A stretch of 64,000 nt of DNA from an uncultured Acidobacteriota bacterium (GCA_963770895.1 CAVYRF010000001.1:2048001-2112000), one strand, 5' to 3'. Positions 27,394 to 57,193 are shown, counted from the stretch's first letter. Numbers and translations: made by a program. The notes: a model not told the origin generated them from the sequence alone.

Positions 27394-27406
27394 GGCCTCC
27401 CATTCT

Positions 27407-27928
27407 TCAATCGAATAGCCGCCGGATATCGGCCATTGGCCGAAACAACTTCATGGGCTGGTCCAGAAACGGAAGGAAGCTTTCCCGCTCGTAGAAACGG
27501 CGAGCGCTCTCATCTTTCGCATCGACGATCACCGCGAACGAGGCGATCTCGCTCCGCGCGGCGCGGTAGAGCGCGTCGGCAAGCAGAAACCGCCCGTAGC
27601 CCTTACCCTGTTGGCGGCGATCGACGGCAAGCCGGCCCAGCAGCGTCGCCGGGACCAATGGATATCGCGGGAGCTTGCGCACAGTCTGTGCCGGCAGCTC
27701 GGCGAGCTGCACCGATGTCGAGGAGAGGGTGTAGTACCCCCCGATCGCCCCGTCCGGTAGCAGCAGGACAAAGGGTGCGGCCATGTTCTTCCGCGCGTCC
27801 TGGCCTGCCTGCGTCCGGAAATATCGATCGAGCGGTTCTACACCACTCTCGAATTCCGACCGGTCATGGCTGGACGTCAGCGGTTCGACGCGAAGTTTCT
27901 CTTCTTTTTCTTCGGACACGCGCGTCAA
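27407..27928 (-). CDS. GNAT acetyltransferase toxin (TacT/AtaT-like)
   Basis: 'HDRSEFESG..PLDRYF', 'GYYTLS', 'LPRYPLVPATLLGRLAVDRRQQGKGYG', 'VIVDAKDESA..FYE'. Confidence 0.92.
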   Translation of the reverse strand: MTRVSEEKEEKLRVEPLTSSHDRSEFESGVEPLDRYFRTQAGQDARKNMAAPFVLLLPDGAIGGYYTLSSTSVQLAELPAQTVRKLPRYPLVPATLLGRLAVDRRQQGKGYGRFLLADALYRAARSEIASFAVIVDAKDESARRFYERESFLPFLDQPMKLFRPMADIRRLFD

Positions 27929-28227
27929 ACGCCGGCTCGCTCGCGATAGCGGCGCACCGTGTCGCGCAGACGGTCATTGACCGGCTGCGGTTTCAGCAGC
28001 GCGTTGACGAAAGCCTCGCTGTCGCGGACAGAGAGGGCGAGCTGGCTGTGTTCCTCGATCGCACGCCGCGCGGCGTCTTGCACGCTCGTCAGCACAAAGT
28101 CGGTCACGCTCCGTCCCTGCAGGGTGGCTGCCCGCTCGATCAGGCTCTTCTGCTCTGCGGTGACGCGCGCCTCCAAGCGCTCCGCCCGTGTGCGCTTGGT
28201 CATGGATCTGGATGCTGCATTGGCCAT
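27925..28227 (-). CDS. DUF1778 (TacA/AtaR-like) RHH antitoxin
   Basis: 'RLEARVTAEQKSLIERAA..QGRSVTDFV...A...IE....L.LS..DSEAFVNAL..P..VN.RL'. RBS AGGAGG; stop overlaps the toxin start. Confidence 0.92.
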   Translation of the reverse strand: MANAASRSMTKRTRAERLEARVTAEQKSLIERAATLQGRSVTDFVLTSVQDAARRAIEEHSQLALSVRDSEAFVNALLKPQPVNDRLRDTVRRYRERAGV

Positions 28228-28245
28228 GGCCGTCCTCCTGACACC

Positions 28246-28274
28246 ATTGTACGGCCAATGGCCGGGCATTTCAA
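28246..28274 (-). promoter_or_regulatory. Toxin-antitoxin operon promoter with palindromic operator in the spacer
   Basis: Minus strand TTGAAA-17 bp-TACAAT. The spacer contains the inverted repeat CGGCCA-N-TGGCCG (28252-28264). Confidence 0.75.
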
Positions 28275-28504
28275 GCTAGCCTCCCATAGGAGGCCCCCTC
28301 GGCTCTGCCGGTCCGCGCGCGGTTCGCTCTTCGGCCACGCGGGATAGTCGCCGCCTCGGCTTCCGAGGCGGCGACGGCACCGTCAGGGTTCTCGGCTTGG
28401 GATGGGCTCGCCGCCGCGGCGGAGCGGGATTCCCCGCGGCGCCGCTTGTAGGGAATGGGGCGGCACGATACCGCCCCGCTTGCTTCAGGACTTCTTGAAC
28501 GGGA

Positions 28505-33000: not shown

Positions 33001-33212
33001 TTCGGCTCGCCCGGCACGCCGGTCACCGCGAGCACCCGGCCACCGCGGAAGGGGCCGAGCAGCCGCCAGTGAAGGCCGGAGAACAGCGCCGGGTCGACGG
33101 GTCCCCCGGCCTTGGCAATCGGAGCGGCGGCGGCGGCGGTCGGCAGGGCGAGAGCGAGCCCGGCGGCGCCTGCGAGAAGGCGGCGGATGGAGCGGCGGCG
33201 GTTGTCGTTCAC
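30033..33212 (-). CDS. Secreted sortilin/Vps10 BNR-repeat beta-propeller protein (glycosyl-hydrolase-like)
   Basis: 'WRLLGPFRGGR', many Asp-boxes (SRDAGRTW, SADGGRTW, SSDGGQHW, STDGGDHW, SDDGGEHW, TRDEGGHW), 'LVIATHGRGFWILDD'. GTG start at 33212 with signal peptide. Confidence 0.88.
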   Translation of the reverse strand: MNDNRRRSIRRLLAGAAGLALALPTAAAAAPIAKAGGPVDPALFSGLHWRLLGPFRGGRVLAVTGVPGEPNHFYFGAVNGGVWESRDAGRTWKPIFDGQPIATIGAIAVAPSRPSTLYVGSGEADMRSDIAQGDGMYKSADGGRTWTHLGLTDTQQIGRILVDPQDPERVYVAALGHPYGPNAERGVFRSSDGGQHWQQVLKKDADTGAIDLAFEPGNPRVLYAALWQTRRPPWSVYPPSNGPGGGLWKSTDGGDHWRELTGNGLPAHPGRIGIAVAATAPQRVYAIVDAEAGGLYRSDDGGEHWTQKSSDHRIWQRGWYFGSVTVEPTDPDTVWISDTNFYRSRDGGATFAPIEGDATGDDYHMLWIDADHPASRILAVDQGAMVSVDGGASWSSWHNQPTAQIYHVATDGRFPYWVYGAQQDSGAVALPVRGSSHDGITMMQFTEITAGGESDMIAPDPDDPQTIYGGRVTRLDRRTQQTRNVDPTLAYPGEVYRDEWTLPLAFSRRDPRVLYYGNQKVFRTADGGDHWSVISPDLTREDPGVPANLDAATAADDLHGGPRRGVVYTIAPSRLADRDLWVGTDDGRVWRTRDEGGHWQDVTPAGLAPWSKIGILEPSPFAAESAYAAVDRHRVDDFHPYLYRTRDGGAHWELAVVGIPDGSVVNAVRADPVRRGLLYAGTEKGVYVSFDDGDHWQSLQLGLPVTSVRDLEVHDADLVIATHGRGFWILDDVEPLRQAGEVAAAAWLYRPAPAVRLRVASFTGTPLQKDEPTAANPPDGAYVDYVLREPARRPVTLEIFDAAGQLVRRYSSADLPKPVAPAELRVAPQWSAPRVTLTAEPGMHRFVWPLRWAAPKETSHGDSWADGLWAAPGRYRLVLTVDGSRLEQSLEVLADPRLALPASAYEEQLAAARQVQAIQVSLASAQAAADAVLHAAGARRERAPAALRERLDRLERDGAQIAGVAGDQERASGRPGSPPRTDSLRFATERARTLFDAIEGADAAPSADARAGLDALSSLAAHAVAAWRAFTEGELAATNRELAAAGLAPIASEPAAPAP

Positions 33213-33407
33213 GGCGCCAAGCCTAACCGAGCGACCGGCAGCGTGAAAAGGCACACGCCGGCGGCAGGGCAAGCCGGCCGATGCGCGCATACGGCCATGG
33301 CCATGCGCGAGCCCGCGGAGCGCCGGCTCTCCGCGGGCCGAATGCGGGAGGGGGCGGCGCAGCCGGCCGGCTGCGCCGCCCTGCGAGAGGAAGGCTACGG
33401 CACCGGC

Positions 33408-34820
33408 CTACGGGAGGTCCCACTCCTCGTTGCTGTCGCCGATCGCGTGGCGCAGCCGCGAGAGGCCGGCGTCGGAGGCCGGGATGGTGTAGTCGTAGCG
33501 ATACCAGTGGTCGCCCTGGAGGCGCCCGTACATGTGGCCGAAGCTCCCCTGGCAGATGAGGCCGGTGTTGGTATAGCCGGGCTTGCACTCCTTGAGGCAG
33601 TGCTCCGAGGCCTGGTCGTCGCCGGCCAGGCACTCGGACTTGTAGCAGCCGTCGGGGTCCGGCTTGCCGATGGTGTAGGTCGGAGTGCCCTCGCAGGCAG
33701 CCATGTTGAGGGGAGGCGGGTTCTGGGTGGGATGCTGGCTGATGCCGTCGGGTCCCCAGTGCCAGGTGGCGAACTCGCCCTGCGGATATTGGAGGCTGGG
33801 CGAGCTGTGCTGCGACCAGTTGTCCTGGAGCATCCAGGGCTCTTCATAGCTGTCCAGGTCGGCCAGCCTGGCCGTCCAGGTGCGCAGGATGTCGGCATCC
33901 GACTTGGGGTTGCGGAAATCGGCCCAGTAGGCGCACCCACCGGCGCCGGCGGGGCCCGCCGAGTTGTCGTCGTGGAACGAGCCGTGCGAGAGCTTGCCCA
34001 CGTAGACCACGGGGTGCTCGCCGTCGCTGCGAAAGCCGGAGGAGCCGCCGCAGCGCCCGGTTCCGCCGGGGGTGCAGGGAGCGTCGTGAGACCCCGAGAT
34101 GCGCGTGTACCAGCCGCCGTGCTGGAAGTAGGTGACGGCCGCCACGGCGTTGCGGTCCTCCCGCAGGATGACGATCACGTTCTCCCAATCGCCGTTGTGC
34201 TTCCCCTCCTCCATGAAACAGGGGTGCTGGTAGCCGTAGAACCACCAGTACCGGATGCGCACCTGCTTGCCGACGGTCCGGATCTGGTAATAGGTCGGAA
34301 TGGATTTGTTTCCGAGCGTCGCCTGATTCGTGTTTTCGACCCCGACCGGCGTGTTGCCCGGCTGGTCGACCGGATTGCCGTCCTTGTCCTTGGGCAGCCT
34401 GTCGACGAACGGCTGCGGCGGCATCGGATACCCCTGCGCGGCACGGTCGAACTTCAGCTCCGGCGCGAAGCGGGCGTCGAGCGCCGGGGTGACCAGGTTG
34501 GGCGGCGACCCCTGAGCGCAGAAAACCTTGCCAAGCTTGTTCTGAGGCGGCCACTTCCTGTGGATGGCGCACTTGTACCCCGGCCCGCCCATGGCGCCGC
34601 CATCGGCGAGCCCATAGATCTCCCAGGGCTGCATAGAGTCGCAGATCTGCTGCCTGTGCTCGAAAGCCTCCTGCGTGGTGAGCACGTGCATGGCTCCGCA
34701 GTGCGCCGCGTCGTCCGCCGCGAACACCGGAAACTTCCCACCGCTCGTCTGGCCAACCGCCGGCAGGCCGCAGCAGATCAGCACCAGCCAACACGGACCG
34801 ACCCATAGAGATCTTTTCAT
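33408..34820 (-). CDS. Secreted Cys-rich protein with N-terminal APT-like domain and NPP1/Vps62-like domain
   Basis: Signal peptide 'MKRSLWVGPCWLVLICCGLPAVG'; 'FAPELKF', 'YWWFYGYQ...HNGDWENVIV', 'FQHGGWY', 'HPVVYVGKLSHG'. Start 34820 after GAGGAGG. Confidence 0.7.
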   Translation of the reverse strand: MKRSLWVGPCWLVLICCGLPAVGQTSGGKFPVFAADDAAHCGAMHVLTTQEAFEHRQQICDSMQPWEIYGLADGGAMGGPGYKCAIHRKWPPQNKLGKVFCAQGSPPNLVTPALDARFAPELKFDRAAQGYPMPPQPFVDRLPKDKDGNPVDQPGNTPVGVENTNQATLGNKSIPTYYQIRTVGKQVRIRYWWFYGYQHPCFMEEGKHNGDWENVIVILREDRNAVAAVTYFQHGGWYTRISGSHDAPCTPGGTGRCGGSSGFRSDGEHPVVYVGKLSHGSFHDDNSAGPAGAGGCAYWADFRNPKSDADILRTWTARLADLDSYEEPWMLQDNWSQHSSPSLQYPQGEFATWHWGPDGISQHPTQNPPPLNMAACEGTPTYTIGKPDPDGCYKSECLAGDDQASEHCLKECKPGYTNTGLICQGSFGHMYGRLQGDHWYRYDYTIPASDAGLSRLRHAIGDSNEEWDLP

Positions 34821-35200
34821 CTCCCGGTTCCTCCTCGTCTGAGAATGGGGTAGGGCTTTCCACCATTGTATCGGAACCGCGATCCGCGAAGTCCGCGCCG
34901 CCCGTGGCAAGGATGAACTTCGCCTTGGCCTTGGCTGCGCATTCCGCTGAAGGCGACCACCCGTTCCTGAAACCCAGGCTGTCCGCGGGCTTCTCCTCTC
35001 TTCGCGCGGTAAGGAAGTGTCGTCGGCAGCCCCGCGGGCAGGTATGATGCTCTCCAGGGCGAGGCGCACGGGTTCGGGCCGTTTCGGTCCGCCACGATCG
35101 CCGCTTCCGCTACCCCGCGGCATTTCTTTCGCGATCCGCTCTTGTACCGCCGGCCGCCGCGGGGATGTGCGAAGGCCTGTCTCGGAAGGGATGTTCCTGA

Positions 35201-37033
35201 TTGGACAGCGCGACCCACCCCTCGCCTCGTTGGCTCCGTGACCTGCGGCGCTTCCTACCCCTCAAGAGCCAGTTTGTCCTGAGCGGCAACGTCCGCGACC
35301 TCCAGATCTACGCGACTGGGGAAGCGGTCACCGCGGTGAGCCTGGAAACGGTGCTCGGTGCAACGCTCGCCCGAGCCGGCTTCGTCTCCGTGCTCGCCTA
35401 CGAGCCGGTCGCCGGCTTCCGCGTCCTCGACCGTCCCGACGGATCTCCATCCGACGCCCGGGCGGTGCTCGGCGGGCTCGGGCTCACGCCGTCGGCCAAC
35501 GGCGCCGCTCCGGCCGGCCCCGACCTGTTTGCGTCGGTGCTGCAGCGGCTCGTCCAGCGCGACGGAGCGCCGATCGCGCTGGTCGCCGACTTCGCGTCGC
35601 GTCTCCTGGTCCGCCACGACGCGCCGAGCGTCGCCGAGCACCAGCTGTTCACCACCGCGCTCGTGCTGAGCCAGAAGGCCGCAGCACGCCCTCTCGGGGT
35701 CGACCGCTCGCCGCTCTACAACGCGGTGATCTGGGTCGTCGACAAGGAGGGGGACCTGCCCGATTGGCTGACGATCGGCAACCCGCGCATTCGCCACATC
35801 CCGATTGCGAGCCCCGATCGCCAGGCGCGATGGGCCGTCGCCCCATCTCTCCTCCGCGGGCTCCCCGGCGCCCGCGAAGCGCCCCCCGAGGCGCTTCGGC
35901 GCGCCGAGGTCGAGCTGGTCGATGGCACCGAGGGGCTGCTCCTCATGGACCTGAGCTCGATCGCCCAGCTGGCGCGCTCCGAGGGCGTGGCGCTCGGCGA
36001 CATCGGCGACGCCGTCCGGCGCTACAAGGTGGGCGTCACCGAGGACGCCTGGCGGAAGATCGAGAAGGAGAGGATCCGAGGCGGCGTCGAGCAGGTGACC
36101 AAACGGGTGATCGGCCAGGACCACGCGGTCACCCACATGCTCGACATCGTCAAGCGGGCGGCAACCGGTCTCGGCACCGGCGGCACCGGCGGGCGCCCGC
36201 GCGGCATTGCGTTCCTCGCCGGCCCGACCGGCGTCGGCAAGACGGAGCTCGCGAAGAGCGTGACCGAGCTGCTGTTCGGCGACGAGAGTGCCTACATTCG
36301 CTTCGACATGTCGGAGTTCAGCGCTGAGCACGCCGACCAGCGGCTGATCGGCGCGCCGCCCGGCTACGTTGGCTACGACATGGGGGGCGAGCTGACCAAC
36401 GCGATCCGCGAGAAGCCGTTCGCGGTCGTCCTGTTCGACGAGATCGAGAAGGCGCACCCGCGCATCCTCGACAAGTTCCTGCAGGTGCTCGACGACGGGG
36501 TCCTAACCTCGGGGCGCGGCGACCGTGTCTACTTCTCGGAGGCGCTGATCGTGTTCACCTCCAACCTCGGCATCTACAGGCTCGACGCGAGCGGGGCGCG
36601 GATCCCGAACGTCGCTCCCGACCAACCGTTCGAGGAGGTGCGGGCGCGGGTGCGGGCCGAGATCGAGGCCCACTTCAAGCTCGTCCTCAACCGGCCCGAG
36701 ATCCTCAACCGCATCGGCGAGAACATCATCGTGTTCGATTTCATCCGGCGTGACGTGGCAGACCGGATCTTCGACGGCATGGTCGACGCGCTGCTGCGCG
36801 AGGCCGCGAAGTCGGGGCATCGGGTCGCGATCGCGCCCGAGGCGCGGGAGGCGCTGCGCGAGCTCTGCGTCGCCGACCTCTCGAACGGCGGCCGCGGCGT
36901 GCGCAACAAGCTCGAAGTCCATCTCACCAACCCGCTCGCCCGCGCGCTCTTCGACCGCGACGGGGAAGGGCCGGTGGTCGTCCGCCGCGTCGAGCCCGGC
37001 GCGATCACCCGTCTGCATCTCGAGAGCGAATGA
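35201..37033 (+). CDS. ClpA/ClpB D2-like AAA+ ATPase with divergent N-terminal domain
   Basis: Walker A 'GPTGVGKTELAK', 'RFDMSEF', pore loop 'RLIGAPPGYVGY', Walker B 'VVLFDEIEKAHP', 'FTSN', 'RPEILNRI'. Only one intact AAA module. Confidence 0.88.
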   Translation: MDSATHPSPRWLRDLRRFLPLKSQFVLSGNVRDLQIYATGEAVTAVSLETVLGATLARAGFVSVLAYEPVAGFRVLDRPDGSPSDARAVLGGLGLTPSANGAAPAGPDLFASVLQRLVQRDGAPIALVADFASRLLVRHDAPSVAEHQLFTTALVLSQKAAARPLGVDRSPLYNAVIWVVDKEGDLPDWLTIGNPRIRHIPIASPDRQARWAVAPSLLRGLPGAREAPPEALRRAEVELVDGTEGLLLMDLSSIAQLARSEGVALGDIGDAVRRYKVGVTEDAWRKIEKERIRGGVEQVTKRVIGQDHAVTHMLDIVKRAATGLGTGGTGGRPRGIAFLAGPTGVGKTELAKSVTELLFGDESAYIRFDMSEFSAEHADQRLIGAPPGYVGYDMGGELTNAIREKPFAVVLFDEIEKAHPRILDKFLQVLDDGVLTSGRGDRVYFSEALIVFTSNLGIYRLDASGARIPNVAPDQPFEEVRARVRAEIEAHFKLVLNRPEILNRIGENIIVFDFIRRDVADRIFDGMVDALLREAAKSGHRVAIAPEAREALRELCVADLSNGGRGVRNKLEVHLTNPLARALFDRDGEGPVVVRRVEPGAITRLHLESE

Positions 37034-37674
37034 CGCCCGCCGCGATCTCCCGCCTCCACTTCCCGGTCACCACGCTCGGCCCGGGGCGCCGCATCGGGGT
37101 CTGGTTCCAGGGGTGCTCGCTCCGCTGCCCCGGCTGCATCTCACCCGATACCTGGGAGCCCGGACGCGGGGAGACCACGGTCGAGGAGGTGCTCGCGGCG
37201 CTCGCCCCGTGGCGGGACGCGGCCGATGGGCTGACCGTCTCGGGCGGCGAGCCGTTCGAGCAGGGCAAGGCGCTCGCCGCGCTCTTGACCGGCTGGCGCG
37301 CCGGAGCGCCGAAGAGCTCGCTGGTCTTCACCGGCTTCGAGCGCGCCGCCGTCGAGCCCTGGCTTGCCGCCCACCCGGGGCTGATCGACGCGCTCGTCAC
37401 CGGTCCTTTCCGGCAGGAAGCGCCGCAGACCCTGGCGCTACGCGGCAGCGACAATCAGGAGCTGCACGTCCTGTCGCCGCTCGGCGTCGCGTTCCGAGCC
37501 CTCGACCGGCCGGCGACCGGCGACGACCGCCGCCTCGACGCCATGTTCGACGCCGACGGCACGGTCTGGTTCGCCGGCATCCCGGCGCGCGACGACTTCC
37601 GGCGCCTCCGCCGCGCCCTCGAAGCGGCGGGCCACGCCGTCACCCTCTCACCCAGGGCACGAGGAGCCGCATGA
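37030..37674 (+). CDS. NrdG/PflA-like radical SAM 4Fe-4S protein
   Basis: 'LGPGRRIGVWFQGCSLRCPGC' (CxxxCxxC), 'GLTVSGGEPFEQ', 'LRGSDNQ'. ATGA overlaps on both sides. Confidence 0.88.
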   Translation: MTPAAISRLHFPVTTLGPGRRIGVWFQGCSLRCPGCISPDTWEPGRGETTVEEVLAALAPWRDAADGLTVSGGEPFEQGKALAALLTGWRAGAPKSSLVFTGFERAAVEPWLAAHPGLIDALVTGPFRQEAPQTLALRGSDNQELHVLSPLGVAFRALDRPATGDDRRLDAMFDADGTVWFAGIPARDDFRRLRRALEAAGHAVTLSPRARGAA

Positions 37675-40600
37675 TCCGTTTCTGTCCGGCCTGCGCGACG
37701 GAGCGCAGCCCGTCCGAGGTGTTCTGCGAGGGGACCATCGACGGCCGGCCTTGCGATTGGAACCTGAGCGAGGTGCCGCTCCGGCCGGCCGGCTGGCGGC
37801 CGTCCCCGGAAGGGGAGCTCGAGCCCGTCCCGGCGCCGTCCGGCGTCTGCCCGAACGGCCACCCCCTCGAGCCGGGCGACCTCCTCTGCGGGCGGTGCGG
37901 GGCCGACCTGACGACCACCGAACCCTCCGCCTCCGGCACCGCGCTCCGGGAGGGGGAGCCCGCAGGCGGAGCGGCGACACCGTCGATCCCCGGCTGGAGG
38001 ATCGAGCACCGGATCGCCGCCGACAGTCAGGTCCAGGAGCGCTACGCCGCGGTGCGCGAGGCGGACGGCCACCGCGCCGTCCTCACCGTCTACAGCGAGG
38101 GGCACGAGCCGGATGCCGAGGTCTACGAGGTGCTGCGGACGCTCGATCGCGAGCACGTCCCCGACCTGCTCGAGACCGGGCGGTGGGACGGGCGCGCCTA
38201 CGAGCTGAGCGAGGACTTGCGCGGCGGCACCCTCGCCGAGGTCGGCCTCCTGCCCGATGATCTCGGCACTCTGTCGCGCATCGTCTCCGAGCTCGGCAGG
38301 GCCCTCCATGCGCTCTCCGAGCACGGGCTGCGCCACCGCGACCTGCGTCCGAGCGCGATCCTCGTCCGCACCCGCGAGCCGCTCGACCTCGTCCTCACCA
38401 GCTTCGGCTCGGCGCTCCTGTCGGACTACGACCTCGACACCGTCTCGCCGCTCGAGACGACGCGCTACACGGCGCCCGAGGCGGCCTTGGGCGCCGTCGC
38501 CGCGGCGAGCGACTGGTGGAGCTTGGGGATTCTCCTTCTGGAGCAGGTGACGCGCGGCGCCTGCTTCGCGGGGGTGAACGACCAGGCGTTCCTGATCCAC
38601 GTCCTGACCCACGGGGCGCCGATCCCGGAAGGGCTCGCTCCCGAGGTCGACCTCCTGCTGCGCGGGCTCCTGACGCGCGACCGGCGCGAGCGTTGGGGCT
38701 GGCCCGAGGCGCAGCGCTGGCTCGCCGGCGAGTCGCCTTCCGTCTCGGCCTCGGCGCGTCCCGCGGCGGAGACGCGAGGAACGCGAACCCTCCAGCTCGG
38801 TGGCACCGACTACGCCAGCCCGACCGCGTTCGCGTTCGCCGCCGCGGAGGCGGCGAACTGGGACGAGGCGCGCACGCTCCTCGCGCGCGGCGCCGTCGCG
38901 ACTTGGGCCGAGGAGGCGGGGTTCGACGGCCGGCTACAGGCGGATCTTCGGCACCTCGCCCACGTCGACGACCTGTCGGACGACCTGCGGCTGACCCTGG
39001 CCGTCAGGGCGTTGAATCCGGCGATGCCGCTCGTCTTGCGCGGTGAGATCGTGACACCGGGCTGGCTCCTCGACCACCCGGACGAGGGGTACGCGATGAT
39101 CGCCGGCTCTGCCCCCGACCGGCTCGCCCGCAACGACGCGGATGTCTGGCTGTCGCGCATGAAGGCCCGCGCCTTGCAGGTGCGCGAGCGGGCCGAGCAA
39201 CTCGGCATCGCCCTGGATGAGACGGAGCTGCGGCTCTACCTCCTCGCCACCTCGCGCAGCCGCCTCGCGGCGATCTGGCGGGAGCGCTGTCGCCTCCTTC
39301 CCGATACCGACCATCCGGGGCTCGTCGCGCTCATGGAGCGTCGGCAGACGACCGACGAGGACTACATCGTGCTGCTCGCCGCCGACGTCGGGCAGTTCCG
39401 CACCGCCGACGCGGTGGTCGTGGACGCCGCACGCGCCGCAGCAGACGTCGGGGTCGAGAGCTTCGATGCGGCAGCGGCCCGTGCCCGGCTCGAGAAGCCG
39501 CGGCGCGAGATCTACTCCGAGATCGAGCAGCGCCTCGCCGGCTTCTCGCGCTGCGATCGCGCGCGGATCGACGAGTGGGCCGACAGCTTTCGGATCGAGC
39601 GCCGCCTGCCGCTCCCGCGGGCGCTCGCCCTCCTCGCGGTGCCGGCCGATTCGTGGCGCGAGCCGCCGCGGCAAGCCTACGTGGCGACCCTGCTCGACTT
39701 CTTCGGCAAGCGAATCACCAACGCGCTGGTCCGCGGGCCGCTGACCCGCATGCTGGTCGGCAAGAACGCCGCGCGCCTCGATCTGACCGAGCTCGACGGC
39801 GAGCGCCGGTCGGCGGCCGCGCTGCTCGACCACCTGCTCCGGCGAGGGGCGCTGGCGATCGACCTCGACCCCGCCGTCTTCCGGGACGACCCGACGCTCG
39901 AGCGTCGGCTGCGCACGCTGCACTCTCACGCCATGCTCTACCGCCGCGACACCGGGATCGACGGCCTCTACCTCGGGTTCCCCTTCCTCCTCCTGCAGGA
40001 GAACCGGACGTCGGTCAAACCGCGGATCGCGCCGGTCCTCCTCTGGCCGGTGCGGCTCCGGCCGGAAACCGGCGCGCGGGCGCGGATCGACGTCGCCTTC
40101 GACGACGACCGCCAGGAGGTGCGGCTCAATCCCGCGTTCGCCCTCCTTCTGGGAGCCGATGCGGCCCGCCGCTGGGAGGAGGCCGCCCGCGACCTGCTCG
40201 GCCGTGCGAGCCTGACCGCCGGCGGGGTGCTCGACGCGTTTGCCGGCCTGGCCGCTGTCGAGGGGCGGAGCCTCGTCCCGCTCCCCGGCAAGGACGCGAA
40301 GGTCGAGCCAGGCGCCGATCGGCTGGTCTGCGCCGCGGTGCTGTTCAACCTCTCCTTCCTCGGCCAGGCGGTCTTGGAAGACCTGCGCCAGCTGAGGGCG
40401 ATCCCGCCCGCCGGCACCGGTCTCGAGAAGGCGTTCCGGGTCGGGGGCCGGGTGGAGCGGTCTTCCCTCGAGCCCGTGCGCGAGCGCGATCGGTACCTCA
40501 CCGCCGACAGCGATCCATCCCAGGAACGGGCGGTCCTGGAAGCGCGCACGGGCAGCGGGTTGGTGGTGGAAGGGCCGCCGGGCACCGGCAAGAGCCAGAC

Positions 40601-43600
40601 GATCGTCAACATGGTCGCCGACGCCATCGGCCGCCGCAGGAGCCTCCTCGTCGTCTGCCAGAAGCAGGCGGCGCTCGAGGTCGTGCACAAGCGGCTGGAA
40701 GCGGAGGGGCTGGGCGGGCGCGTCATGATGCTCAACGATGTGAACAAGGACCGCCTGCCGATCATCCGCGCGGTCCGCGAGCAGCTCGAGGCGCTCATGG
40801 CGCGCCTCGCGGGCGAGGCGGGCTGGCGGCAGCAGCGCCAGCAGCTGGCCGGCCGCATCGAGGTCCTGGAAGCCGACCTCGACCGCCATCACGAGGCGCT
40901 GCACGCGGCCGATCCCGCGACCGGCCTTAGTTATCGCCTCGTCCTCGGCGACCTGATCTCCGCCGAGACGGGAGAGCGGCCGCCGATCGACGTGCCGCGC
41001 CTGCGCCTTGTCCTGGGCTCCGTCGGCCCCTCCAACGTCGCCCATCTGCAGGAGACCTGTGGGCCGCTCGCCGGGCTTTGGCTCGCCGCGGAGTTCGAGG
41101 ACAGCCCGCTCGCCGGGCTCCGCCCTTTCGCTTCGGACGCCGGGACGGTCGCGGCCTTCGCCGACGACCTGGCGGCGTTCGCGAAACGCGATCGGGAGCG
41201 TTGCGATGTCCTCGCGCGCACCGCGGACGCGATCGAGGCCGACGATCCGGACGCCTGCCGGAGCTGGAAAGCCCTCCACGCCGAGACGTTCCGTTCTCTC
41301 GACGAGGCAGCCCGCGAGCGGCTCGCCCGCTGGCTCCCCCGGCTGACGCGAGAACGCGACGAGGAGTGGCGGCGGGAGACCGCCGAGCTTGAAGCGGTCG
41401 CGCAGGGGATCGCGGCCCTCACCGCCGGCCCCTCCGACGCGCCGTCGGCGCGGGTGGCGCGCGGCCTTTCGACGCCGGACCTCGGCACGATCGACGGGCT
41501 GACGGAGACGGCGCTCCCCGCCAGCTTCTTCGCCAGGTTTTCCCTGTCGCGCTTCCGCAAACGGCGGCAGCTCCTCACCTTTCTTCGTTCGGCCGGCCTC
41601 GCCGATCCGCTCGCGTTGCGGGCTGCCGTCCGCGACGAGATCGCCGTCCGCCCGTTCCGCGACCGGCTGGCCGCAACGCGCGCTCGCCTCGGCGAGCCGC
41701 CACTGCCGCTCGAAGAGCGACCTCCCGCGGTGCTCGCCGCGACCGCTCGCACCCTGGGCGCATGGTTGGCCGAGGCGGCGCAGCTGGCCGCTCGCCTCCT
41801 CGAGCATCCACGCCGTGCGGCGGCCTGGGCGATGGCGGGTGCCGCGGCCCGCGAGGCGTTCGACCGGTTCCTCGACCGCGTCGAGCAGGGCCTCGAGCGT
41901 CACCGGGCGCAGCAGGCGAGCCTCGCGGCGCTCGCATCGCTCGCGACCTGGTTCGAGGAGCCCTGGCTCGCCGACCGTCGCCGCGAGATCGGAAGCGGCA
42001 TGGAATGGCGCGACGGCACCACGGCGTTCATCCCGCAGCGGGTCGCCGCCTATCAGCGCTTCCGTTCGCGAGCCCGCGAGCTGTCGCCGCTCGCGCTCGA
42101 CGCGTTCCGTGCCCTCCGCACTGTCGCCCCGGCACTACGGCAGCTGCCCGACGGCGCGCTCGACGGCGAGGTACGGCGGATCTTCGCCCGTGAATCGCGC
42201 CTCGCCTGGAAGGCGCATCTCGAAGGCGAGCGGCCGGCCCTCCTGTTCGAGGCGGCGGAGCTCGAGGCCAAGCGCGAGGCGCTCGCCGCGGCGGATCGCG
42301 AGATGCGGACGCTCAACCGAAGGTGGGTGGCCGAGGGAATCGACATGGCGAAGGTGCGCCCGCTCCGCGAGTGGGAGGACATCACCCGCCTCTCCGGCCA
42401 GCGGACGCGGCGGCTGCGCGAGTTCCTCGACCGCGGAGTGGAGCTCGGCCTGATGGCCCTCCGCCCCGTCTGGCTGATGAACCCGGACGTCGCGAGCCGC
42501 GTCCTGCCGCTGCGCGGCGGACTGTTCGACGCCGTCATCTACGACGAGGCGTCGCAAATGCCGATCGAGTACGCCGTTCCGAGCCTGTATCGCAGTCGCG
42601 TCATGATCGTCAGCGGCGACGAGAAGCAGATGCCGCCGAGCGCCTTTTTCTCCAGCCGAGTGGCGAACGACGAGGGGGAGCCGTTCGCAGGGGACGGCGC
42701 GGAGGAGGGGGCGAGCGAGCAGGAGCGCGAGGAGCTTGCCGCGACCTGGGACCGGCGCGAGATCAAGGACTGCCCCGACCTGCTGCAGCTGGCGCGCTCG
42801 GTGCTTCCCATCACGACGCTGCAGATCCATTACCGCTCGGCCTACAGCGAGCTGATCCAGTTCTCGAACGCCTCGTTCTACGCGAACGGCCTGAGCGTCC
42901 CGGTGCGCCACCCCGAGGCCGAGGTGCGCCGCGTGCGGCCGATCGAGCTGCTCCAGGTCGACGGTGTCTACCAGGAGCAGACGAACCGGGCCGAGGCGGA
43001 GCGGGTCGTCGCGGTGGTGGCGGAGCAGTGGAAGGTTCCCGCCGCGGAGAGGAAGTCGATCGGCGTCGTGACGTTCAACCGCAAACAGGCCGACCTCATC
43101 GAGGAGAGGCTCGAGGCCCGCGCCCAGGAGGACCCGGCGTTCCGCGCCGCCCTCGCCGAGGAGCGCGACCGCGTCGAGAAAGGGGAGGACGTCGGCTTCT
43201 TCGTCAAGAACGTCGAGAATGTGCAAGGGGACGAGCGAGACGTCATCGTCTTCTCCTCGACGTTCGGGCGCAACGCGCAGGGCACCTTCCGCCGCTCCTT
43301 CGGCGTGCTCGGCCAGGTGGGCGGCGAGCGCCGCCTCAACGTCGCGGTGACCCGAGCGCGCGAAAAGGTGGTCCTCGTCACCTCCATGCCGATCCCGCTC
43401 ATCTCGGACTTTCTCGCGACGCTGCGCCAGGCCGAGTCGCCCCGCGACTACCTGCAGGCCTACTTCGAGTACGCCCGCGCGCTCTCGTCCGGGGAGCTCG
43501 AACGGGCGCGTTCGCTTCTCGGCCGCCTGGCGCCAGGGCGCGATGGACGCGGTCCGCGCACGCCGACCGCCGTCGATCTCGACGGCTTCCAGCAGGCGGT

Positions 43601-43907
43601 GGCGGAGGAGATCGAGCGGCTGGGCTTCCGCCCCCTGTCCGTCCAGGAGGCGGGGGTCTTTGGCTTCGACTTCGCCATCGAGGACCCGCGGACCGGCCTC
43701 TTCGGCATCGCGATCGAGTGCGACGCGCCGCGCCATCCACTGCTCGACCGGGCGCGCCCGCGCGAGGTCTGGCGGCCCGGCGTGCTGCGGCGCTCGATCC
43801 CCGCCGTCCACCGCGTCTCGTCGCGCGGCTGGTGCCAGGCGCCGGCCGAGGAGAAGGCGCGGCTGCGCGCGGCGATCGAAGCAGCCCTCTGCGGGGAGGC
43901 GGCATGA
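37671..43907 (+). CDS. 2078-aa fusion: Zn ribbons, Ser/Thr (pseudo)kinase, DUF4011-like domain, UPF1-like SF1 helicase, Vsr/MTES_1575-like nuclease
   Basis: Start MIRFCPAC at 37671 (RBS GAGGAG). CPAC..C..C and CPNGH..CGRC; kinase 'HRDLRPS', 'YTAPE', 'DWWSLG'; 'TGIDGLYLGFPFL...APVLLWPV...LNP'; 'GPPGTGKSQTI', 'FDAVIYDEASQM', 'GDEKQMPP', 'HYRS', 'VENVQGDERD', 'RRLNVAVTRAR'; C-terminal 'FDFAI...IAIECD...HRVSSRGW'. Confidence 0.88.
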   Translation: MIRFCPACATERSPSEVFCEGTIDGRPCDWNLSEVPLRPAGWRPSPEGELEPVPAPSGVCPNGHPLEPGDLLCGRCGADLTTTEPSASGTALREGEPAGGAATPSIPGWRIEHRIAADSQVQERYAAVREADGHRAVLTVYSEGHEPDAEVYEVLRTLDREHVPDLLETGRWDGRAYELSEDLRGGTLAEVGLLPDDLGTLSRIVSELGRALHALSEHGLRHRDLRPSAILVRTREPLDLVLTSFGSALLSDYDLDTVSPLETTRYTAPEAALGAVAAASDWWSLGILLLEQVTRGACFAGVNDQAFLIHVLTHGAPIPEGLAPEVDLLLRGLLTRDRRERWGWPEAQRWLAGESPSVSASARPAAETRGTRTLQLGGTDYASPTAFAFAAAEAANWDEARTLLARGAVATWAEEAGFDGRLQADLRHLAHVDDLSDDLRLTLAVRALNPAMPLVLRGEIVTPGWLLDHPDEGYAMIAGSAPDRLARNDADVWLSRMKARALQVRERAEQLGIALDETELRLYLLATSRSRLAAIWRERCRLLPDTDHPGLVALMERRQTTDEDYIVLLAADVGQFRTADAVVVDAARAAADVGVESFDAAAARARLEKPRREIYSEIEQRLAGFSRCDRARIDEWADSFRIERRLPLPRALALLAVPADSWREPPRQAYVATLLDFFGKRITNALVRGPLTRMLVGKNAARLDLTELDGERRSAAALLDHLLRRGALAIDLDPAVFRDDPTLERRLRTLHSHAMLYRRDTGIDGLYLGFPFLLLQENRTSVKPRIAPVLLWPVRLRPETGARARIDVAFDDDRQEVRLNPAFALLLGADAARRWEEAARDLLGRASLTAGGVLDAFAGLAAVEGRSLVPLPGKDAKVEPGADRLVCAAVLFNLSFLGQAVLEDLRQLRAIPPAGTGLEKAFRVGGRVERSSLEPVRERDRYLTADSDPSQERAVLEARTGSGLVVEGPPGTGKSQTIVNMVADAIGRRRSLLVVCQKQAALEVVHKRLEAEGLGGRVMMLNDVNKDRLPIIRAVREQLEALMARLAGEAGWRQQRQQLAGRIEVLEADLDRHHEALHAADPATGLSYRLVLGDLISAETGERPPIDVPRLRLVLGSVGPSNVAHLQETCGPLAGLWLAAEFEDSPLAGLRPFASDAGTVAAFADDLAAFAKRDRERCDVLARTADAIEADDPDACRSWKALHAETFRSLDEAARERLARWLPRLTRERDEEWRRETAELEAVAQGIAALTAGPSDAPSARVARGLSTPDLGTIDGLTETALPASFFARFSLSRFRKRRQLLTFLRSAGLADPLALRAAVRDEIAVRPFRDRLAATRARLGEPPLPLEERPPAVLAATARTLGAWLAEAAQLAARLLEHPRRAAAWAMAGAAAREAFDRFLDRVEQGLERHRAQQASLAALASLATWFEEPWLADRRREIGSGMEWRDGTTAFIPQRVAAYQRFRSRARELSPLALDAFRALRTVAPALRQLPDGALDGEVRRIFARESRLAWKAHLEGERPALLFEAAELEAKREALAAADREMRTLNRRWVAEGIDMAKVRPLREWEDITRLSGQRTRRLREFLDRGVELGLMALRPVWLMNPDVASRVLPLRGGLFDAVIYDEASQMPIEYAVPSLYRSRVMIVSGDEKQMPPSAFFSSRVANDEGEPFAGDGAEEGASEQEREELAATWDRREIKDCPDLLQLARSVLPITTLQIHYRSAYSELIQFSNASFYANGLSVPVRHPEAEVRRVRPIELLQVDGVYQEQTNRAEAERVVAVVAEQWKVPAAERKSIGVVTFNRKQADLIEERLEARAQEDPAFRAALAEERDRVEKGEDVGFFVKNVENVQGDERDVIVFSSTFGRNAQGTFRRSFGVLGQVGGERRLNVAVTRAREKVVLVTSMPIPLISDFLATLRQAESPRDYLQAYFEYARALSSGELERARSLLGRLAPGRDGRGPRTPTAVDLDGFQQAVAEEIERLGFRPLSVQEAGVFGFDFAIEDPRTGLFGIAIECDAPRHPLLDRARPREVWRPGVLRRSIPAVHRVSSRGWCQAPAEEKARLRAAIEAALCGEAA

Positions 43908-45241
43908 GCGGTCCCAAGGTCGTCCGTATCGTGAGCCGGGAGGAGATCCTCGCCTTGTGCCGCGGGTTGCTGGCGCGGGTCGACGCGGCGCTCGCGGAAT
44001 GGGCCGGCGCCGACGGGGTGGGCGAGGCCGACCTCGCGGTGGCGCGGAGGCGGCGGGAGGATCTGGGTCGCCTGCTCGACGCCGGCAGTTTCCTCGACCT
44101 CCAGAAGCAGGCGCCCCGCGAAGAGGCGTTCCTGCGCTCCGACCGCACGGCGAGGGCTGCTCGGGCCGCCGCCGCAGCCGCGCAGGAGCGGGCGGTGGAA
44201 CGGCGCCGCAGCGAGGCCGGCCGTGCGCTGCTCGCGGCGCTCCATCGCCAGGGAGCCGCGCTCGACCCGCAACTCGAACGGGCATTGGACGCGGTGGCAG
44301 GTGGTGCACTCGATCCCGTCGCGATGCGCCGCGGCTTCGCCCTTTTGACCGCCGGGAGCGGGGCGGAGGTTGGCCTGGACCGCGAGCGGGCGCGGAGCCT
44401 GAAGGAGGGAGACGATCGAGCGAGCTTCTCCGACTGGCTCGCCCGGCAGCCGAAACCGCCGTCCGACCCGGCTGTCGAGCGCCTCGAAGCGCGCCTGGCC
44501 GAGTTGGCCGGGGTCGCGGGGCGGGAAGCGGCCGCACTGCTGACGGCGCGCCTGCAACGGGCGCTGGAGGAGGTACCGCCGCGGCGAGGATTGCTGCTCG
44601 ACAGCCTGGAAATGGACCTCGGACCGGCGCTCGCCGAGGCGAGGCGGCGGGCCGACCTCGACCAGGAGATCCGCCTGGTCTTCGCGGAGCTGTCGGAGGC
44701 GGGTTCGCCGGCGCTCGTCACGCTCGCAGAGCGGCGCCGCGCGAGCGACACACCGGAAGCGCTCGACTCTCTCCTCTCCCAGGCCCGCGAGACGCTCACG
44801 CGGGAACGCGAAGCCCGAGGCGCCGCGGCGCGAAGATTGGCCGTCCTCGAAGCTCTCTCCGGTCTCGGCTACGAGGTCAGGGAGGGACTCGCGACCGCCT
44901 GGGTCGAGGAGGGGAGAGTCGTGCTTCGCAAGCCGGCGCAGCCCGGTTACGGCGTCGAGATCTCGGGCGACCCCGCCGCGGCACGTCTGCAGATGCGCGC
45001 CGTCGCGTTGACAGGCGGCACCGCCGGCCCCGATCCGGCCCGCGACCGCGACGCCGAGACCCTCTGGTGCGGCGACGTCGCGGCGCTCCAGACCCGCCTT
45101 GCGGCCGAAGGCGGCGGCCTCACGATCGAGAAGGCGCTGCCGATCGGCGCAACGCCCCTCAAACGCGTCGTCGAGCCGACCGCGTCCCGCACGGAAGCCC
45201 GGGAAGGTCCGGGCCAGCACACGTTCCCGCTGCGGCGCTGA
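43904..45241 (+). CDS. Hypothetical coiled-coil protein, last gene of the AAA/radical SAM/helicase operon
   Basis: Start 'MSGPKVVRIVSREE' overlaps the upstream stop (ATGA) after GGGGAGG. Helical Ala/Arg/Glu-rich body; C-terminal alpha/beta segment 'LSGLGYEV.EG...PGYGVE...RD.DAE..WC'. Confidence 0.8.
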   Translation: MSGPKVVRIVSREEILALCRGLLARVDAALAEWAGADGVGEADLAVARRRREDLGRLLDAGSFLDLQKQAPREEAFLRSDRTARAARAAAAAAQERAVERRRSEAGRALLAALHRQGAALDPQLERALDAVAGGALDPVAMRRGFALLTAGSGAEVGLDRERARSLKEGDDRASFSDWLARQPKPPSDPAVERLEARLAELAGVAGREAAALLTARLQRALEEVPPRRGLLLDSLEMDLGPALAEARRRADLDQEIRLVFAELSEAGSPALVTLAERRRASDTPEALDSLLSQARETLTREREARGAAARRLAVLEALSGLGYEVREGLATAWVEEGRVVLRKPAQPGYGVEISGDPAAARLQMRAVALTGGTAGPDPARDRDAETLWCGDVAALQTRLAAEGGGLTIEKALPIGATPLKRVVEPTASRTEAREGPGQHTFPLRR

Positions 45242-45326
45242 CGGTCGCGATGAACTATTTGCGGGCAAGCGGGTACAGACTTGCCAAACGGCTCCCTTCG
45301 CTCGGTCGAGCCCCGTGAGGTGGCGT

Positions 45327-47069
45327 ATGTGTGGCAGCAACTTTCTTCGCTGTGCCAAGGCTATCGTCCTCAACGTGCTGTTCGGTCTGGGCGCGGCGTC
45401 GGCGGCATCCGCCGCCAACGTGACGATCCTGGCCGTAGGTGACGGCTACTACTCCCCCGCGGCCTTCTCGCCCAGGAACGTCACCATCCATGTCGGCGAC
45501 ACGATTACCTTCACCAATGCCAGCGCCAACACCGCCTATCCGGGACCGCACAACGTGCACGCCGACGACGAATCCTTCCTCTGCTCGGATAGTTGCACGT
45601 CGCCGCACAATATGCCGAGCACTGACGCCTGGAGCTTCAGCATCACTTTCAGCTCGCCGAAGACCTTCAACTATCACTGCGACCATCACGGCAACTACAA
45701 CCTGGTGGGCATGAGCGGCACCATCACCGTGCTGGGGAACGGCGCGCCGGGGAATCTGGGCTTCAGTTCCGCCACGTACAGCTCCCTGGACAGCGCCGCC
45801 AACGCCTCGATCGCCGTCGCGCGCACCGGCGGCAGCAGCGGCGCCGTGTCTGTCCTCTATGCGACCAGCGACGGCACCGCCCACGCCGGCAGGGACTACA
45901 CCTCGGCCAGCGGCACGCTCAGCTGGGCCGACGGCGACGCGAGCGCCAAGAGCTTCGCCGTGCCGCTCCTGGCAAACGGCAGCGGCACTGTGAACCTCGC
46001 CTTGAGCGCGCCCAGCGGCGGTGCCGCCCTCGCCTCGCCGAGTACCGCCACGCTGACGATCCAGCCGGCGCAGAACGCCGGCACGATCGGCTTCGCCCAG
46101 GCGAGCCAGAGCGTGAGCGAGAGTGCCGGCACCGTGTCCGTCGTGGTCAACCGGAGCGGCGGCAGCGGCGGCGCGACGGTCCACTACGCGACGGGCGGTG
46201 GTACCGCCGTGGCCGGCACCAATTACACCAGCACCGCGGGGACGCTCAGCTGGGCCAGCGGCGACGATGCGTCGAAGAGCTTCACCGTCCAGGTCCTCGA
46301 CGACCACATCGCGGACGGGACCCACACCGTCAATCTCACGCTCAGCGATGCGACCGGCGGCGCCAAGATCAATCCCACTACCGACACCCTGTCGATCACC
46401 GACGCCGACGGCTCGGGCGCCGCTCCCAAGGTCCCCAGCAACCTGGTCGCCACAACGCTCGACACCAGCGACATCAAGCTCGCCTGGACGCTCAACTCCA
46501 CCGACCAGACCGGCCTGGTGATCCAGAGCCGCCGGCTCGACGGCACCTACGCCACGCTCGCCGGCGGTCCGCCGGCCAGCGCCACCAGCTTCACCGTCTC
46601 CGGGCTCACCGCGGCCACCGGTTACGCCTTCCACATCGCGGCGAGCAATGCCTCGGGGGTTTCTGCCTACAGCAACGAGGCCATCGCCTCGACCGATGCC
46701 ACGCCGGCCGCCTGCGTCGCCAACGCCCAGACCCTGTGCCTGGGCGCCTCCGGCCGCTTCCAGGTCCAGGTCGCCTACGTCTCTGCCACGCAGAGCGGCG
46801 AGGCCACCTCTCTGGCCCTGCCGAGCAACCCCGACTCGGGCCTCTTCTACTTCTTCGACTCCGGCAACATCGAAATGCTCATCAAGGTGCTCAACGCCTG
46901 CGCGGCCCCCTTCGATCACTACTGGGTCTTCTTCGCCGCCACCACCAACGTGCAATTCACCGTCACCGTGATCGACACCCAGACCGGAGCCGTGCAGACC
47001 TATTTCAACCCTCTCAACCAGGCGGCGCTCGCCGTCCAGGACACCGCCGCCTTCGCCACCTGCCCCTAG
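45327..47069 (+). CDS. Secreted protein: cupredoxin + two Calx-beta + FN3 + C-terminal conserved domain
   Basis: Signal peptide; type-1 Cu ligands 'PHNV' and 'YHCDHH...GMSGTITV'; Calx-beta 'V.RTGG..GAVSV.YAT.DGTA.AG.DY....GTLSW..GD...KSF.V' twice; FN3 'P.NL.A......I.L.W...Y.F.I.A.N..G.S'. Confidence 0.85.
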   Translation: MCGSNFLRCAKAIVLNVLFGLGAASAASAANVTILAVGDGYYSPAAFSPRNVTIHVGDTITFTNASANTAYPGPHNVHADDESFLCSDSCTSPHNMPSTDAWSFSITFSSPKTFNYHCDHHGNYNLVGMSGTITVLGNGAPGNLGFSSATYSSLDSAANASIAVARTGGSSGAVSVLYATSDGTAHAGRDYTSASGTLSWADGDASAKSFAVPLLANGSGTVNLALSAPSGGAALASPSTATLTIQPAQNAGTIGFAQASQSVSESAGTVSVVVNRSGGSGGATVHYATGGGTAVAGTNYTSTAGTLSWASGDDASKSFTVQVLDDHIADGTHTVNLTLSDATGGAKINPTTDTLSITDADGSGAAPKVPSNLVATTLDTSDIKLAWTLNSTDQTGLVIQSRRLDGTYATLAGGPPASATSFTVSGLTAATGYAFHIAASNASGVSAYSNEAIASTDATPAACVANAQTLCLGASGRFQVQVAYVSATQSGEATSLALPSNPDSGLFYFFDSGNIEMLIKVLNACAAPFDHYWVFFAATTNVQFTVTVIDTQTGAVQTYFNPLNQAALAVQDTAAFATCP

Positions 47070-57166: not shown

Positions 57167-57193
57167 GGTGCTCTCCTTGCGAAAATATGGGCG

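Follow-up and report, generated by a model that had tools for sequence, protein, structure and literature searches.

A horizontally mobile four-gene cassette coupling a DUF4011 helicase-nuclease to a radical SAM activase and an Hsp100-type motor: a candidate defence system

In a 64,000-nucleotide stretch of DNA from an uncultured Acidobacteriota bacterium (GCA_963770895.1, CAVYRF010000001.1:2048001-2112000; hereafter the window), positions 35201-45241 are filled by four plus-strand open reading frames (ORFs) that show the GC bias at third codon positions of true genes (the window has a GC content of about 70%). They encode, in this order, an Hsp100/Clp-type AAA+ ATPase (g1), a radical S-adenosylmethionine (SAM) activase of the NrdG/PflA type (g2), a multidomain helicase-nuclease (g3) and a coiled-coil protein of no known family (g4). 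An earlier note on this DNA had proposed an uncharacterised anti-phage system; the cassette is indeed unnamed, co-conserved and set in a context that leans towards defence (patchy distribution, carriage on megaplasmids, defence genes downstream), whereas an immune function is something that we infer. We read the cassette, with a probability of about 0.55, as a self-contained mobile system of four proteins directed against invading DNA, be it phage or plasmid, with g3 as its effector and with g1, g2 and g4 as the module that controls g3.

Each of the three gene junctions (37030, 37671 and 43904) is an ATGA overlap, and the ORFs and junctions of the four co-oriented genes were read at exactly the positions given in the earlier note. 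ORF extraction yielded all four genes in 58 related loci, of which 54 retain the −4 overlap between g3 and g4, 36 that between g1 and g2 and 34 that between g2 and g3; the ATGA overlaps are therefore not due to chance, and translational coupling is conserved among related loci. The TTG start of g1 at 35201 directly follows an in-frame TGA, with GGAAGGG about 10 nt upstream, and the N-terminus read from it is the one common to the family. All four products have lengths that are normal for their families, so the cassette genes are unbroken. Neither a sigma-70-like promoter nor an intrinsic terminator was found in 34600-45800, nor a tRNA or Rfam family near the operon, and the RefSeq names of the four genes are generic only. 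At one Pseudomonas locus (L042, 2894-10001), the N-terminus of g3 is longer (2198 residues by ORF call), and g3 and g4, which usually overlap by 4 nt, are about 220-360 nt apart.

The four genes are inherited together. A scan of about 185,000 species genomes, with one genome per species, returned 203 loci with a g4 relative, the best 80 of which were fetched with 10 kb on each side. By tblastn, g1-g2-g3-g4 are present in one order and on one strand in 70 of the 80 fetched loci; eight of the remaining ten are cut by a contig end and two (L041, 9681-11170, and L078, 9756-11347) are remnants with an apparently whole g4 and only the last ~100 codons of g3. As g2 was not found anywhere in the genomes of L041 and L078 either, these represent cassettes in decay from the 5' side. 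In a sample of 301 genomes from the genus of another locus (L040), a strong g4 match occurs in 13 genomes. Each of these, and no other genome, also has a strong g2 match, which lies on the g4 contig at a distance of about 7 kb; eight further g2 matches are weak (E-values of 1e-14 to 9e-11, about 173 residues) and are taken to be ordinary NrdG-like proteins. Co-conservation of the genes, which the earlier note had named as a test, thus turned out to be strict. One of the 301 genomes has its g4 match in two pieces (G589:C115:22375-23666), and in two others the match contains an in-frame TGA (G580:C1:5110802-5112139 and G491:C1:4801039-4802376); all three may be pseudogenes or sequencing errors.

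The cassette is also mobile. Its carriers are mostly Alpha-, Beta- and Gammaproteobacteria, together with three acidobacterial metagenome-assembled genomes and a complete Gemmatimonadales chromosome, and the identities to the window proteins are 58–75% for g1, 46–68% for g2, 43–62% for g3 and 34–52% for g4. The Iamiaceae (label of L029) and the Bacillota (label of L020) were not counted as hosts, these labels being possible binning errors: the layout and scores of L029 are identical to those of the Bradyrhizobium loci L030 and L031, and L020 is a sphingomonad-like locus. Within the genus of the window, g4 is found in none of nine congeners (84–94% complete), and in a 400-genome sample of the host phylum it is found in no other genome, the one other match being a weak coiled-coil match (E-value 3e-5). 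Most copies are chromosomal, and 11 plasmid records carry the cassette, mostly Rhizobium megaplasmids, of which 5 are typed as conjugative and 5 as non-mobilizable. The flanks differ between loci, and clustering of the flanking ORFs revealed no fifth gene that accompanies the cassette generally, the largest cluster covering 16 loci, mostly of sphingomonads. The cassette is a horizontally mobile four-gene unit shared by distant bacteria. In the 16-locus cluster (L005, L006, L007, L012, L015, L017, L023 and others), a gene of the SNase/thermonuclease family lies immediately downstream of g4 on the minus strand, convergent to it, and a conjugative megaplasmid of Rhizobium (L090, 1885-2730) has an SNase-family gene upstream of the cassette, at a distance of a few genes. 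The SNase gene might serve as an optional fifth component or might simply mark the element that carries the cassette.

In the window itself, the congeners have counterparts of the BNR gene (30033-33290) and of all that precedes it, and for 33252-64000 no DNA match was found in the nine congeners except to paralogues of a Calx-beta gene. The accessory stretch around the cassette is therefore at least 30 kb long, in agreement with the accessory region described earlier.

The putative effector g3 has Pfam matches to Pkinase, DUF4011, AAA_11, AAA_12 and MTES_1575, with a helical region between the kinase fold and DUF4011. Near its N-terminus lie two clusters (C5, C8, C19, C28 and C60, H64, C73, C76) whose cysteines are conserved in 62 members and whose spacing suggests zinc ribbons. 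In the kinase domain, H222 and D224 of the HRD motif are kept in 62/62 members, the β3 Lys position is Thr in 57/62, the catalytic Asn is present in only 3/62 and the DFG Asp in only 4/62 (Gly in 50), and there is no Gly-rich loop. Because these three catalytic residues, which characterize the Hanks-type protein kinases, are mostly replaced, the domain is classed from its sequence as a pseudokinase, i.e., a dead kinase; this part of g3 also matches the defence models MADS6 and PD-T4-6. The closest solved helicase to g3 is IGHMBP2. The helicase motifs, among them Walker A (968-975) and DEASQ (1625-1629), are conserved in 62 members and are split by a poorly conserved insertion of ~550 residues (1051-1600), with the lowest conservation at 1150-1500. 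In the nuclease domain, D2000 and D2018 are each present in 62/62, E2016 in 60/62 and H2022 in 58/62 members. The loss of the catalytic kinase residues and the matches to DUF4011, AAA_11/AAA_12 and MTES_1575 bear out the pseudokinase-helicase-nuclease layout that had been noted before.

The assignment of g2 as an NrdG-like radical SAM protein, likewise made in the earlier note, agrees with a Fer4_12 match (8.6e-23, Pfam) and an invariant CxxxCxxC motif; GGEP at 72-75 (G72, G73, E74) and RGSDNQ at 138-143 are also invariant in 26 aligned members. The closest solved structure is the pyruvate formate-lyase (PFL)-activating enzyme 3c8f (1.9e-8), and a QueE model is matched weakly (4.8e-4). With NrdG and PflA, g2 shares the N-terminal CxxxCxxC, the GGE motif, the small size and sequence similarity, but it scores below the cut-offs of both models (NrdG TIGR02491: 71.3 bits, 7.9e-20, cut-off 126.1; PflA equivalog: 54.2 bits, 1.3e-14, cut-off 231.75) and is encoded between the genes for an unfoldase and a helicase-nuclease. 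Glycyl-radical enzymes are the targets of NrdG and PflA, but no such cognate partner was detected in the host genome (G000, 95% complete), where g2 is the only NrdG-like gene found: no match to Gly_radical (PF01228) or NRDD (PF13597) was obtained there, with E. coli and other controls positive. PF01228 was also without a match in four of five other cassette genomes, and in the fifth the match lies far from the cassette. Because no glycyl-radical enzyme is detectable in the host genome, g2 is classed, as far as sequence can tell, as an orphan activase with a non-canonical substrate, which would make the operon's own proteins the obvious candidates. No glycyl-radical-type motif or Gly_radical domain was detected in g1, g3 or g4; a glycyl-radical-like stretch in g1 (KVGVTED), picked up in a by-eye search of g1, g3 and g4, was dropped, as it corresponds to the ClpB segment in front of the D2 ring.

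A complex of g2 and g4 was predicted with a 4Fe-4S cluster and SAM riding along on g2. The interface score ipSAE reached 0.57 (median of 0.61, 0.57 and 0.53), whereas none of three controls exceeded 0.01; at least 75% of contacts are shared between runs, and the partner has a predicted local distance difference test score (pLDDT) of at least 75. In the calibration, 58 of 80 solved complexes and 2 of 110 mismatched pairs reached the mark, but at an ipSAE of 0.60 or less only 7 of the 80 solved complexes did so, along with both passing mismatches. A pass in this range is therefore wrong more often than it is right, unless binding was already likely on other grounds; the custom alignments and ligands used here also depart from that calibration. 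The prediction weakly suggests that g2 binds g4, and it is the one piece of evidence that bears on the earlier proposal that the unfoldase and the radical SAM enzyme would arm or release the effector.

For g4 no match was found in Pfam, PADLOC or NCBIfam, a profile of 26 g4 sequences returned nothing at E≤10 against the sequences of the Protein Data Bank (PDB), and in a protein atlas g4 falls only in its own unnamed cluster. The family comprises 486 clusters (50% identity) at E≤1e-30 in a library of 1.84 billion proteins, with uniform length among the best 150. Its AlphaFold2 (AF2) model (pLDDT 82.8) has a long coiled coil at 12-320, in keeping with the earlier description of g4 as a coiled coil, followed by a small alpha/beta domain (327-423). 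Foldseek found nothing in the PDB that matches the model at E≤0.001. In a VIA-align comparison with 48,161 chains, only generic helical bundles came up (best Z 9.2 over 69 residues), which were discarded, as was a single match of the C-terminal domain to a KA1 domain (Z 6.9), which lies inside the tool's noise band. The first ten residues, MSGPKVVRIV, are invariant in 26 diverse members. In 60 distinct g4 starts the synonymous sites vary freely, with all four Gly and Pro codons and six Arg codons in use, and selection therefore acts on the peptide and not on the RNA. Further motifs lie towards the C-terminus (LGYEV 321-325, YGVE 349-352 and WCGD 388-391), and the invariant residues include Y349, G350, V351, E352 and C389.

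The ClpB-like AAA+ character of g1, also part of the earlier description, is confirmed by Pfam matches to the ClpB-D2-like AAA_2 (3.4e-44) and to ClpB_D2-small, and the score against the NCBIfam ClpB equivalog is below its cut-off (249.5 bits; cut-off 1232). The AF2 model (pLDDT 82.2) can be aligned to the two-ring cores of ClpC1, ClpB and ClpA along ~650 columns (TMq range 0.41–0.48), the best structural match being 8xoo_S (E-value 5.1e-27, TMq 0.48). Residues 1-285 have no Pfam match, yet they are strongly conserved in 59 family members; in the model they form an alpha/beta fold with a helical lid that is covered by the D1 ring of Clp chains. A lead in the protein atlas from this N-terminal domain to AAA families is weak, and otherwise g1 falls only in its own unnamed cluster. 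The D2 motifs, namely Walker A (GPTGVGKT, 341-348), Walker B (411-418) and, between them, the pore loop (GYVGY, 388-392), do not vary among 26 aligned members and are conserved in 59. The model thus suggests that g1 is an Hsp100-type motor with a first ring that lacks a P-loop and an intact second ring, and without the Clp_N and middle domains. It shares the two stacked AAA+ modules of the class I Hsp100/Clp proteins ClpB, ClpC and ClpA (model alignment, E-value 5e-27), but these have an active Walker A in both rings, Clp_N and middle domains, whereas g1 has no P-loop in 1-285 and no Clp_N match.

Table 1. Genes and domains of the four-gene cassette and neighbouring genes, in window coordinates
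Feature	Position	Strand	Basis or remark
g1, Hsp100/Clp-type AAA+ ATPase	35201..37033	+	610 amino acids, TTG start
g1 residues 1-285, predicted degenerate first AAA-like ring, no P-loop	35201..36055	+	conservation, AF2 model
g1 residues 335-587, D2 ring, predicted active	36203..36961	+	Walker A, pore loop, Walker B, D2-small
g2, NrdG/PflA-type radical SAM activase	37030..37674	+	214 amino acids
g2 CxxxCxxC cluster motif (C29, C33, C36)	37114..37137	+	invariant in 26 aligned members
g3, multidomain helicase-nuclease, putative effector	37671..43907	+	2078 amino acids
g3 residues 1-80, two zinc-ribbon-like Cys clusters	37671..37910	+	conserved cysteines
g3 residues ~105-350, Hanks-type pseudokinase	37983..38720	+	Pkinase 6.4e-16
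g3 residues 740-823, DUF4011	39888..40139	+	PF13195 7.4e-11
g3 residues 939-1910, SF1B (Upf1/IGHMBP2-like) helicase	40485..43400	+	AAA_11 (PF13086) and AAA_12 (PF13087)
g3 residues 1973-2069, MTES_1575 (Vsr-like) endonuclease	43587..43877	+	PF18741 4.1e-14
g4, coiled coil and small alpha/beta domain, no known family	43904..45241	+	445 amino acids
g4 residues 1-14, invariant N-terminal peptide MSGPKVVRIV(T/S)REE	43904..43945	+	alignment
g4 residues 327-423, conserved C-terminal alpha/beta domain	44882..45172	+	strands and helix in model
STAND NTPase (NACHT / AAA_16 / NPHP3_N), 777 amino acids	47324-49657	+	absent from 9 congeners
Tubulin_2 and GYF protein (1317 amino acids), three ORFs without Pfam family, HSP70-like protein	53171-63795	-	large genes

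Defence genes are found near the cassette at other loci. We surveyed the three nearest ORFs downstream of g4 in 58 loci (173 ORFs), of which 106 with 200–1500 residues from 56 loci were scanned against PADLOC and Pfam, two ORFs having been dropped for size, and regarded matches with E≤1e-10 as strong. Strong PADLOC matches included MkoA (three ORFs, best E-value 4.1e-41), Upx (two, 2.6e-242), mad3 (two, 1.9e-97), mad8 (two, 6.3e-37), DpdJ (two, 1.5e-12) and, with one ORF each, ShosA (8.4e-98), ShosT (1.5e-46), JetD (1.1e-78), PDC-S65 (4.5e-200), PDC-M40A (3.6e-55) and MTase_II (2.9e-81); Pfam added AbiEii in two ORFs and DO-GTPase2 in one. These are more defence matches than we would expect for random genes, in a tally without a matched background. 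Genes of insertion sequences (IS) and SNase genes lie near the cassette in several loci.

Within the window, the run of large genes at 53171-63795 had no DNA match in the nine congeners and no PADLOC match, and it resembles the GTPase/tubulin/HSP70 conflict systems described by Kaur et al. 2020 (PMC7159879). Directly downstream of g4 lies a gene with cupredoxin, Calx-beta and fn3 domains (45099-47069, plus strand) that is unrelated to the cassette; its Calx-beta gene family is multi-copy in the genus, with dozens of DNA matches of 65–80% per genome. Further upstream, an element of ~0.9 kb (27393-28279) is 94–96% identical in several congeners, compared with 76–88% for the neighbouring genes, and has partial copies elsewhere in the host genome; it is probably an IS remnant, as an overlapping ORF has a sub-threshold match to a DDE transposase. 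Besides a normal tRNA-Leu(CAG) at 14831-14917, ARAGORN called a 'tRNA-???' with a four-base anticodon at 23295-23388, inside a MacB/FtsX permease ORF, which was unconfirmed by Rfam and is probably a false positive.

The family also has a probable link to Pseudomonas aeruginosa. In Johnson et al. 2023 (PMC10250203), both DUF4011 and radical SAM are mentioned among the right-flank 'core genes' of the defence hotspot cDHS1, in the order g4-g3-g2 when read from the hotspot, and are treated there as flanking markers and not as a system; according to the same paper, the family is present in every P. aeruginosa isolate. When g4 of the Pseudomonas locus L040 was used as the query, many P. aeruginosa proteins with 58–59% identity were found, with one cluster of 2453 member sequences, and one P. 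aeruginosa homologue is 41% identical to the window g4 over its full length and has the same invariant N-terminus. Judged by their description and by these g4 homologues, the cDHS1 flank genes are probably this cassette. In strain PAO1, PA2725 is presumably the 'probable chaperone' and PA2726 the 'probable radical-activating enzyme'.

The immune role is proposed because of the kinship of g3 to defence families, the patchiness and mobility of the cassette and its neighbours, and the binding partners and the order of events are likewise conjectural. Catalytic motifs are intact in g1, in g2 and in both the helicase and the nuclease of g3. As the effector, g3 would combine an ATP-driven superfamily 1 (SF1) helicase and a Vsr-like endonuclease, with sensing or docking left to its zinc ribbons and pseudokinase, while g1, g2 and g4 would keep it harmless until needed. 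In the likeliest version, g4 would be a regulatory partner whose invariant N-terminal peptide is a handle for g2 and/or g1, and g1 would thread or remodel g4, or a g3-g4 complex, and thereby switch the nuclease on. A more specific version, which we regard as a long shot, is a protein-radical switch, in which g2 would remove a hydrogen atom either from g3 or from the SGPKVV peptide at the N-terminus of g4, and the resulting backbone radical would react with oxygen and cut the chain. The radical would then not be stored in aerobic hosts but spent in a one-shot, non-proteolytic cleavage, after which the Hsp100-type motor would pull the cut partner away and free the helicase-nuclease.

Several observations weigh against a defence system of this kind. 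g2 and g4 match no PADLOC model and g1 does so only through its generic AAA core, and the ten window neighbours give a single weak PADLOC match (PDC-M28C, 2.3e-10, to the STAND NTPase). The flank tally counts hidden Markov model matches and not complete systems, and rests on crude longest-ORF calls with no matched background. The cassette was not found in phage genome records. Identities of 50–70% across phyla, the putative sensor parts included, are higher than expected for arms-race genes, and the conservation reported throughout P. aeruginosa is not what is usually seen in defence systems. Oxygen destroys glycyl radicals, and most hosts are aerobes, so a classical stable protein radical is awkward.

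Some of these points would sit well with genome maintenance, in which the helicase-nuclease processes host R-loops, stalled forks or DNA-protein crosslinks, g1 strips proteins from DNA and g2 repairs or marks the lesion. The occurrence reported for every P. aeruginosa isolate (PMC10250203) and the abundance of the family there, the high cross-phylum conservation that extends to the N-terminal modules, the few PADLOC matches among the window neighbours and the description of Prometheus relatives, in PMC13700489, as related to eukaryotic enzymes that act on R-loops would all fit. The cassette is, however, too patchy for housekeeping repair (0/9 congeners, no other genome among 400 of the phylum and 13/301 of another genus), it travels on conjugative megaplasmids, defence genes lie directly downstream in a number of loci, and the closest profile matches of g3 are defence families, and we consider such a role rather unlikely. 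About equally unlikely, in our view, is a defence system in which g2 acts on a small molecule or a nucleic acid and not on a protein, with g4 and g1 otherwise employed, and in which a viperin-like modified nucleotide or a QueE-like deazapurine-type product would be possible. The Fer4_12 fold that also houses QueE, the weak QueE match of g2, the lack of a detected glycyl-radical motif or domain in its three partners and the mostly aerobic hosts, which disfavour a stable glycyl radical, speak for this, but the best matches of g2 are the protein activases NrdG and PflA and the PFL-activating enzyme structure, there is no nucleotide- or pterin-handling enzyme in the operon, and the g2-g4 prediction passed, if weakly (0.57 compared with 0.01 for the best control).

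The cassette might also be a selfish addiction or stabilisation module of large plasmids and islands, with the nuclease as a toxin held in check by the other three proteins. Its presence on megaplasmids, the IS and SNase genes nearby in several loci and the remnant loci that keep g4 and the tail of g3 are compatible with this; yet most copies are chromosomal, 5 of the 11 plasmid records are typed as non-mobilizable, the variable flanks do not tie the cassette to one element, and we know of no precedent for a 10-kb, four-enzyme addiction module, all of which makes this very improbable. Defence against invading DNA by the four proteins together thus remains the explanation that we prefer.

If the cassette is immune, it is a widespread unnamed system (g4 occurs in 203 of ~185,000 species genomes) that joins a known effector type to a control module unseen in defence, namely an Hsp100-type unfoldase and a glycyl-radical-type activase without a classical substrate. 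It raises the question of what an NrdG-like enzyme does in aerobes without glycyl-radical enzymes. Should the protein-radical switch be true, it would be the first case of an immune system being armed through radical SAM chemistry on a protein, and would add a new substrate class for glycyl-radical activases. In P. aeruginosa, the family probably marks the edge of the main defence hotspot, and a phenotype would change the reading of that hotspot; its presence there also makes the cassette testable in laboratory strains with existing phage collections.

Compared with named systems, the closest matches are those of g3 in PADLOC, to PDC-S37 (5.9e-144) and Hhe (PDLC02194, 6.7e-64), and in NCBIfam to Prometheus ProA (NF058533), its best match there (507.7 bits, 7.5e-152), which is far below the cut-off of 1500; the score against the NCBIfam Hhe model (NF042953) is 316.3 bits, also far below its cut-off of 2000, with the best stretch only at 1528-2061. 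The matches to PDC-S37, Hhe and ProA are all confined to the helicase-nuclease half of g3. Like g3, Hhe, reportedly the single-gene system of Gao et al. 2020, is one polypeptide that combines DUF4011 with an SF1 helicase and, at the C-terminus, a Vsr-like nuclease (MTES_1575), but g3 adds ~740 N-terminal residues (zinc ribbons, pseudokinase and helical region), and Hhe is a stand-alone gene whereas g3 is accompanied by three more genes (in 70 of 80 loci, the rest being contig-cut or remnants). PDC-S37 (PDLC05009), presumably a single-gene candidate as the 'S' in its name suggests, is matched at model positions 286-1341 of 1550 by g3 939-2072, leaving g3 1-938 uncovered, and PADLOC has no curated cut-off for this model; PDC-S37 is itself uncharacterised, in that no paper naming it was found in the literature searched. 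Prometheus ProA is described in PMC13700489 as a single-protein system of P. aeruginosa with a four-domain organisation and a C-terminal DUF3320. It has DUF4011, helicase and nuclease in common with g3, but its nuclease is, according to the same paper, of the DNA2 type with an insertion whereas that of g3 is MTES_1575, no DUF3320 was found among the Pfam matches of g3 at E≤0.01, and Prometheus consists of one gene and the present cassette of four.

The PADLOC matches of g1, to PDC-M37B (1.1e-27) and Dodola DolB (3.4e-16), concern the ClpB-D2-type AAA core only; they are confined to g1 ~280-456 (338-456 for PDC-M37B), whereas g1 has its own degenerate first ring as modelled, and neither a match to the DolA model in g2, g3, g4 or the ten window neighbours nor a PDC-M37A partner in the operon or those neighbours was found. 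g2 and g4 have no match to the antiphage models of NCBIfam either. Ophion (radical SAM, PHP and PRTase; bioRxiv 10.1101/2025.09.30.679545) differs in its gene set, in the work of Kaur et al. 2020 (PMC7159879) on ternary and GTPase systems a radical SAM effector is named for FtsH/vWA systems only, and a phosphorothioate paper (PMC10853773) is irrelevant to the cassette. No paper describing the four-gene combination was found, and the cassette matches no named system in the databases or literature searched; a match to a named system, another test in the earlier note, is thus lacking, with g3 below the Hhe and ProA cut-offs and g2 and g4 without defence matches. What is new here is a four-gene variant built around an effector of known type, to which it adds an accessory module without a counterpart in known defence systems.

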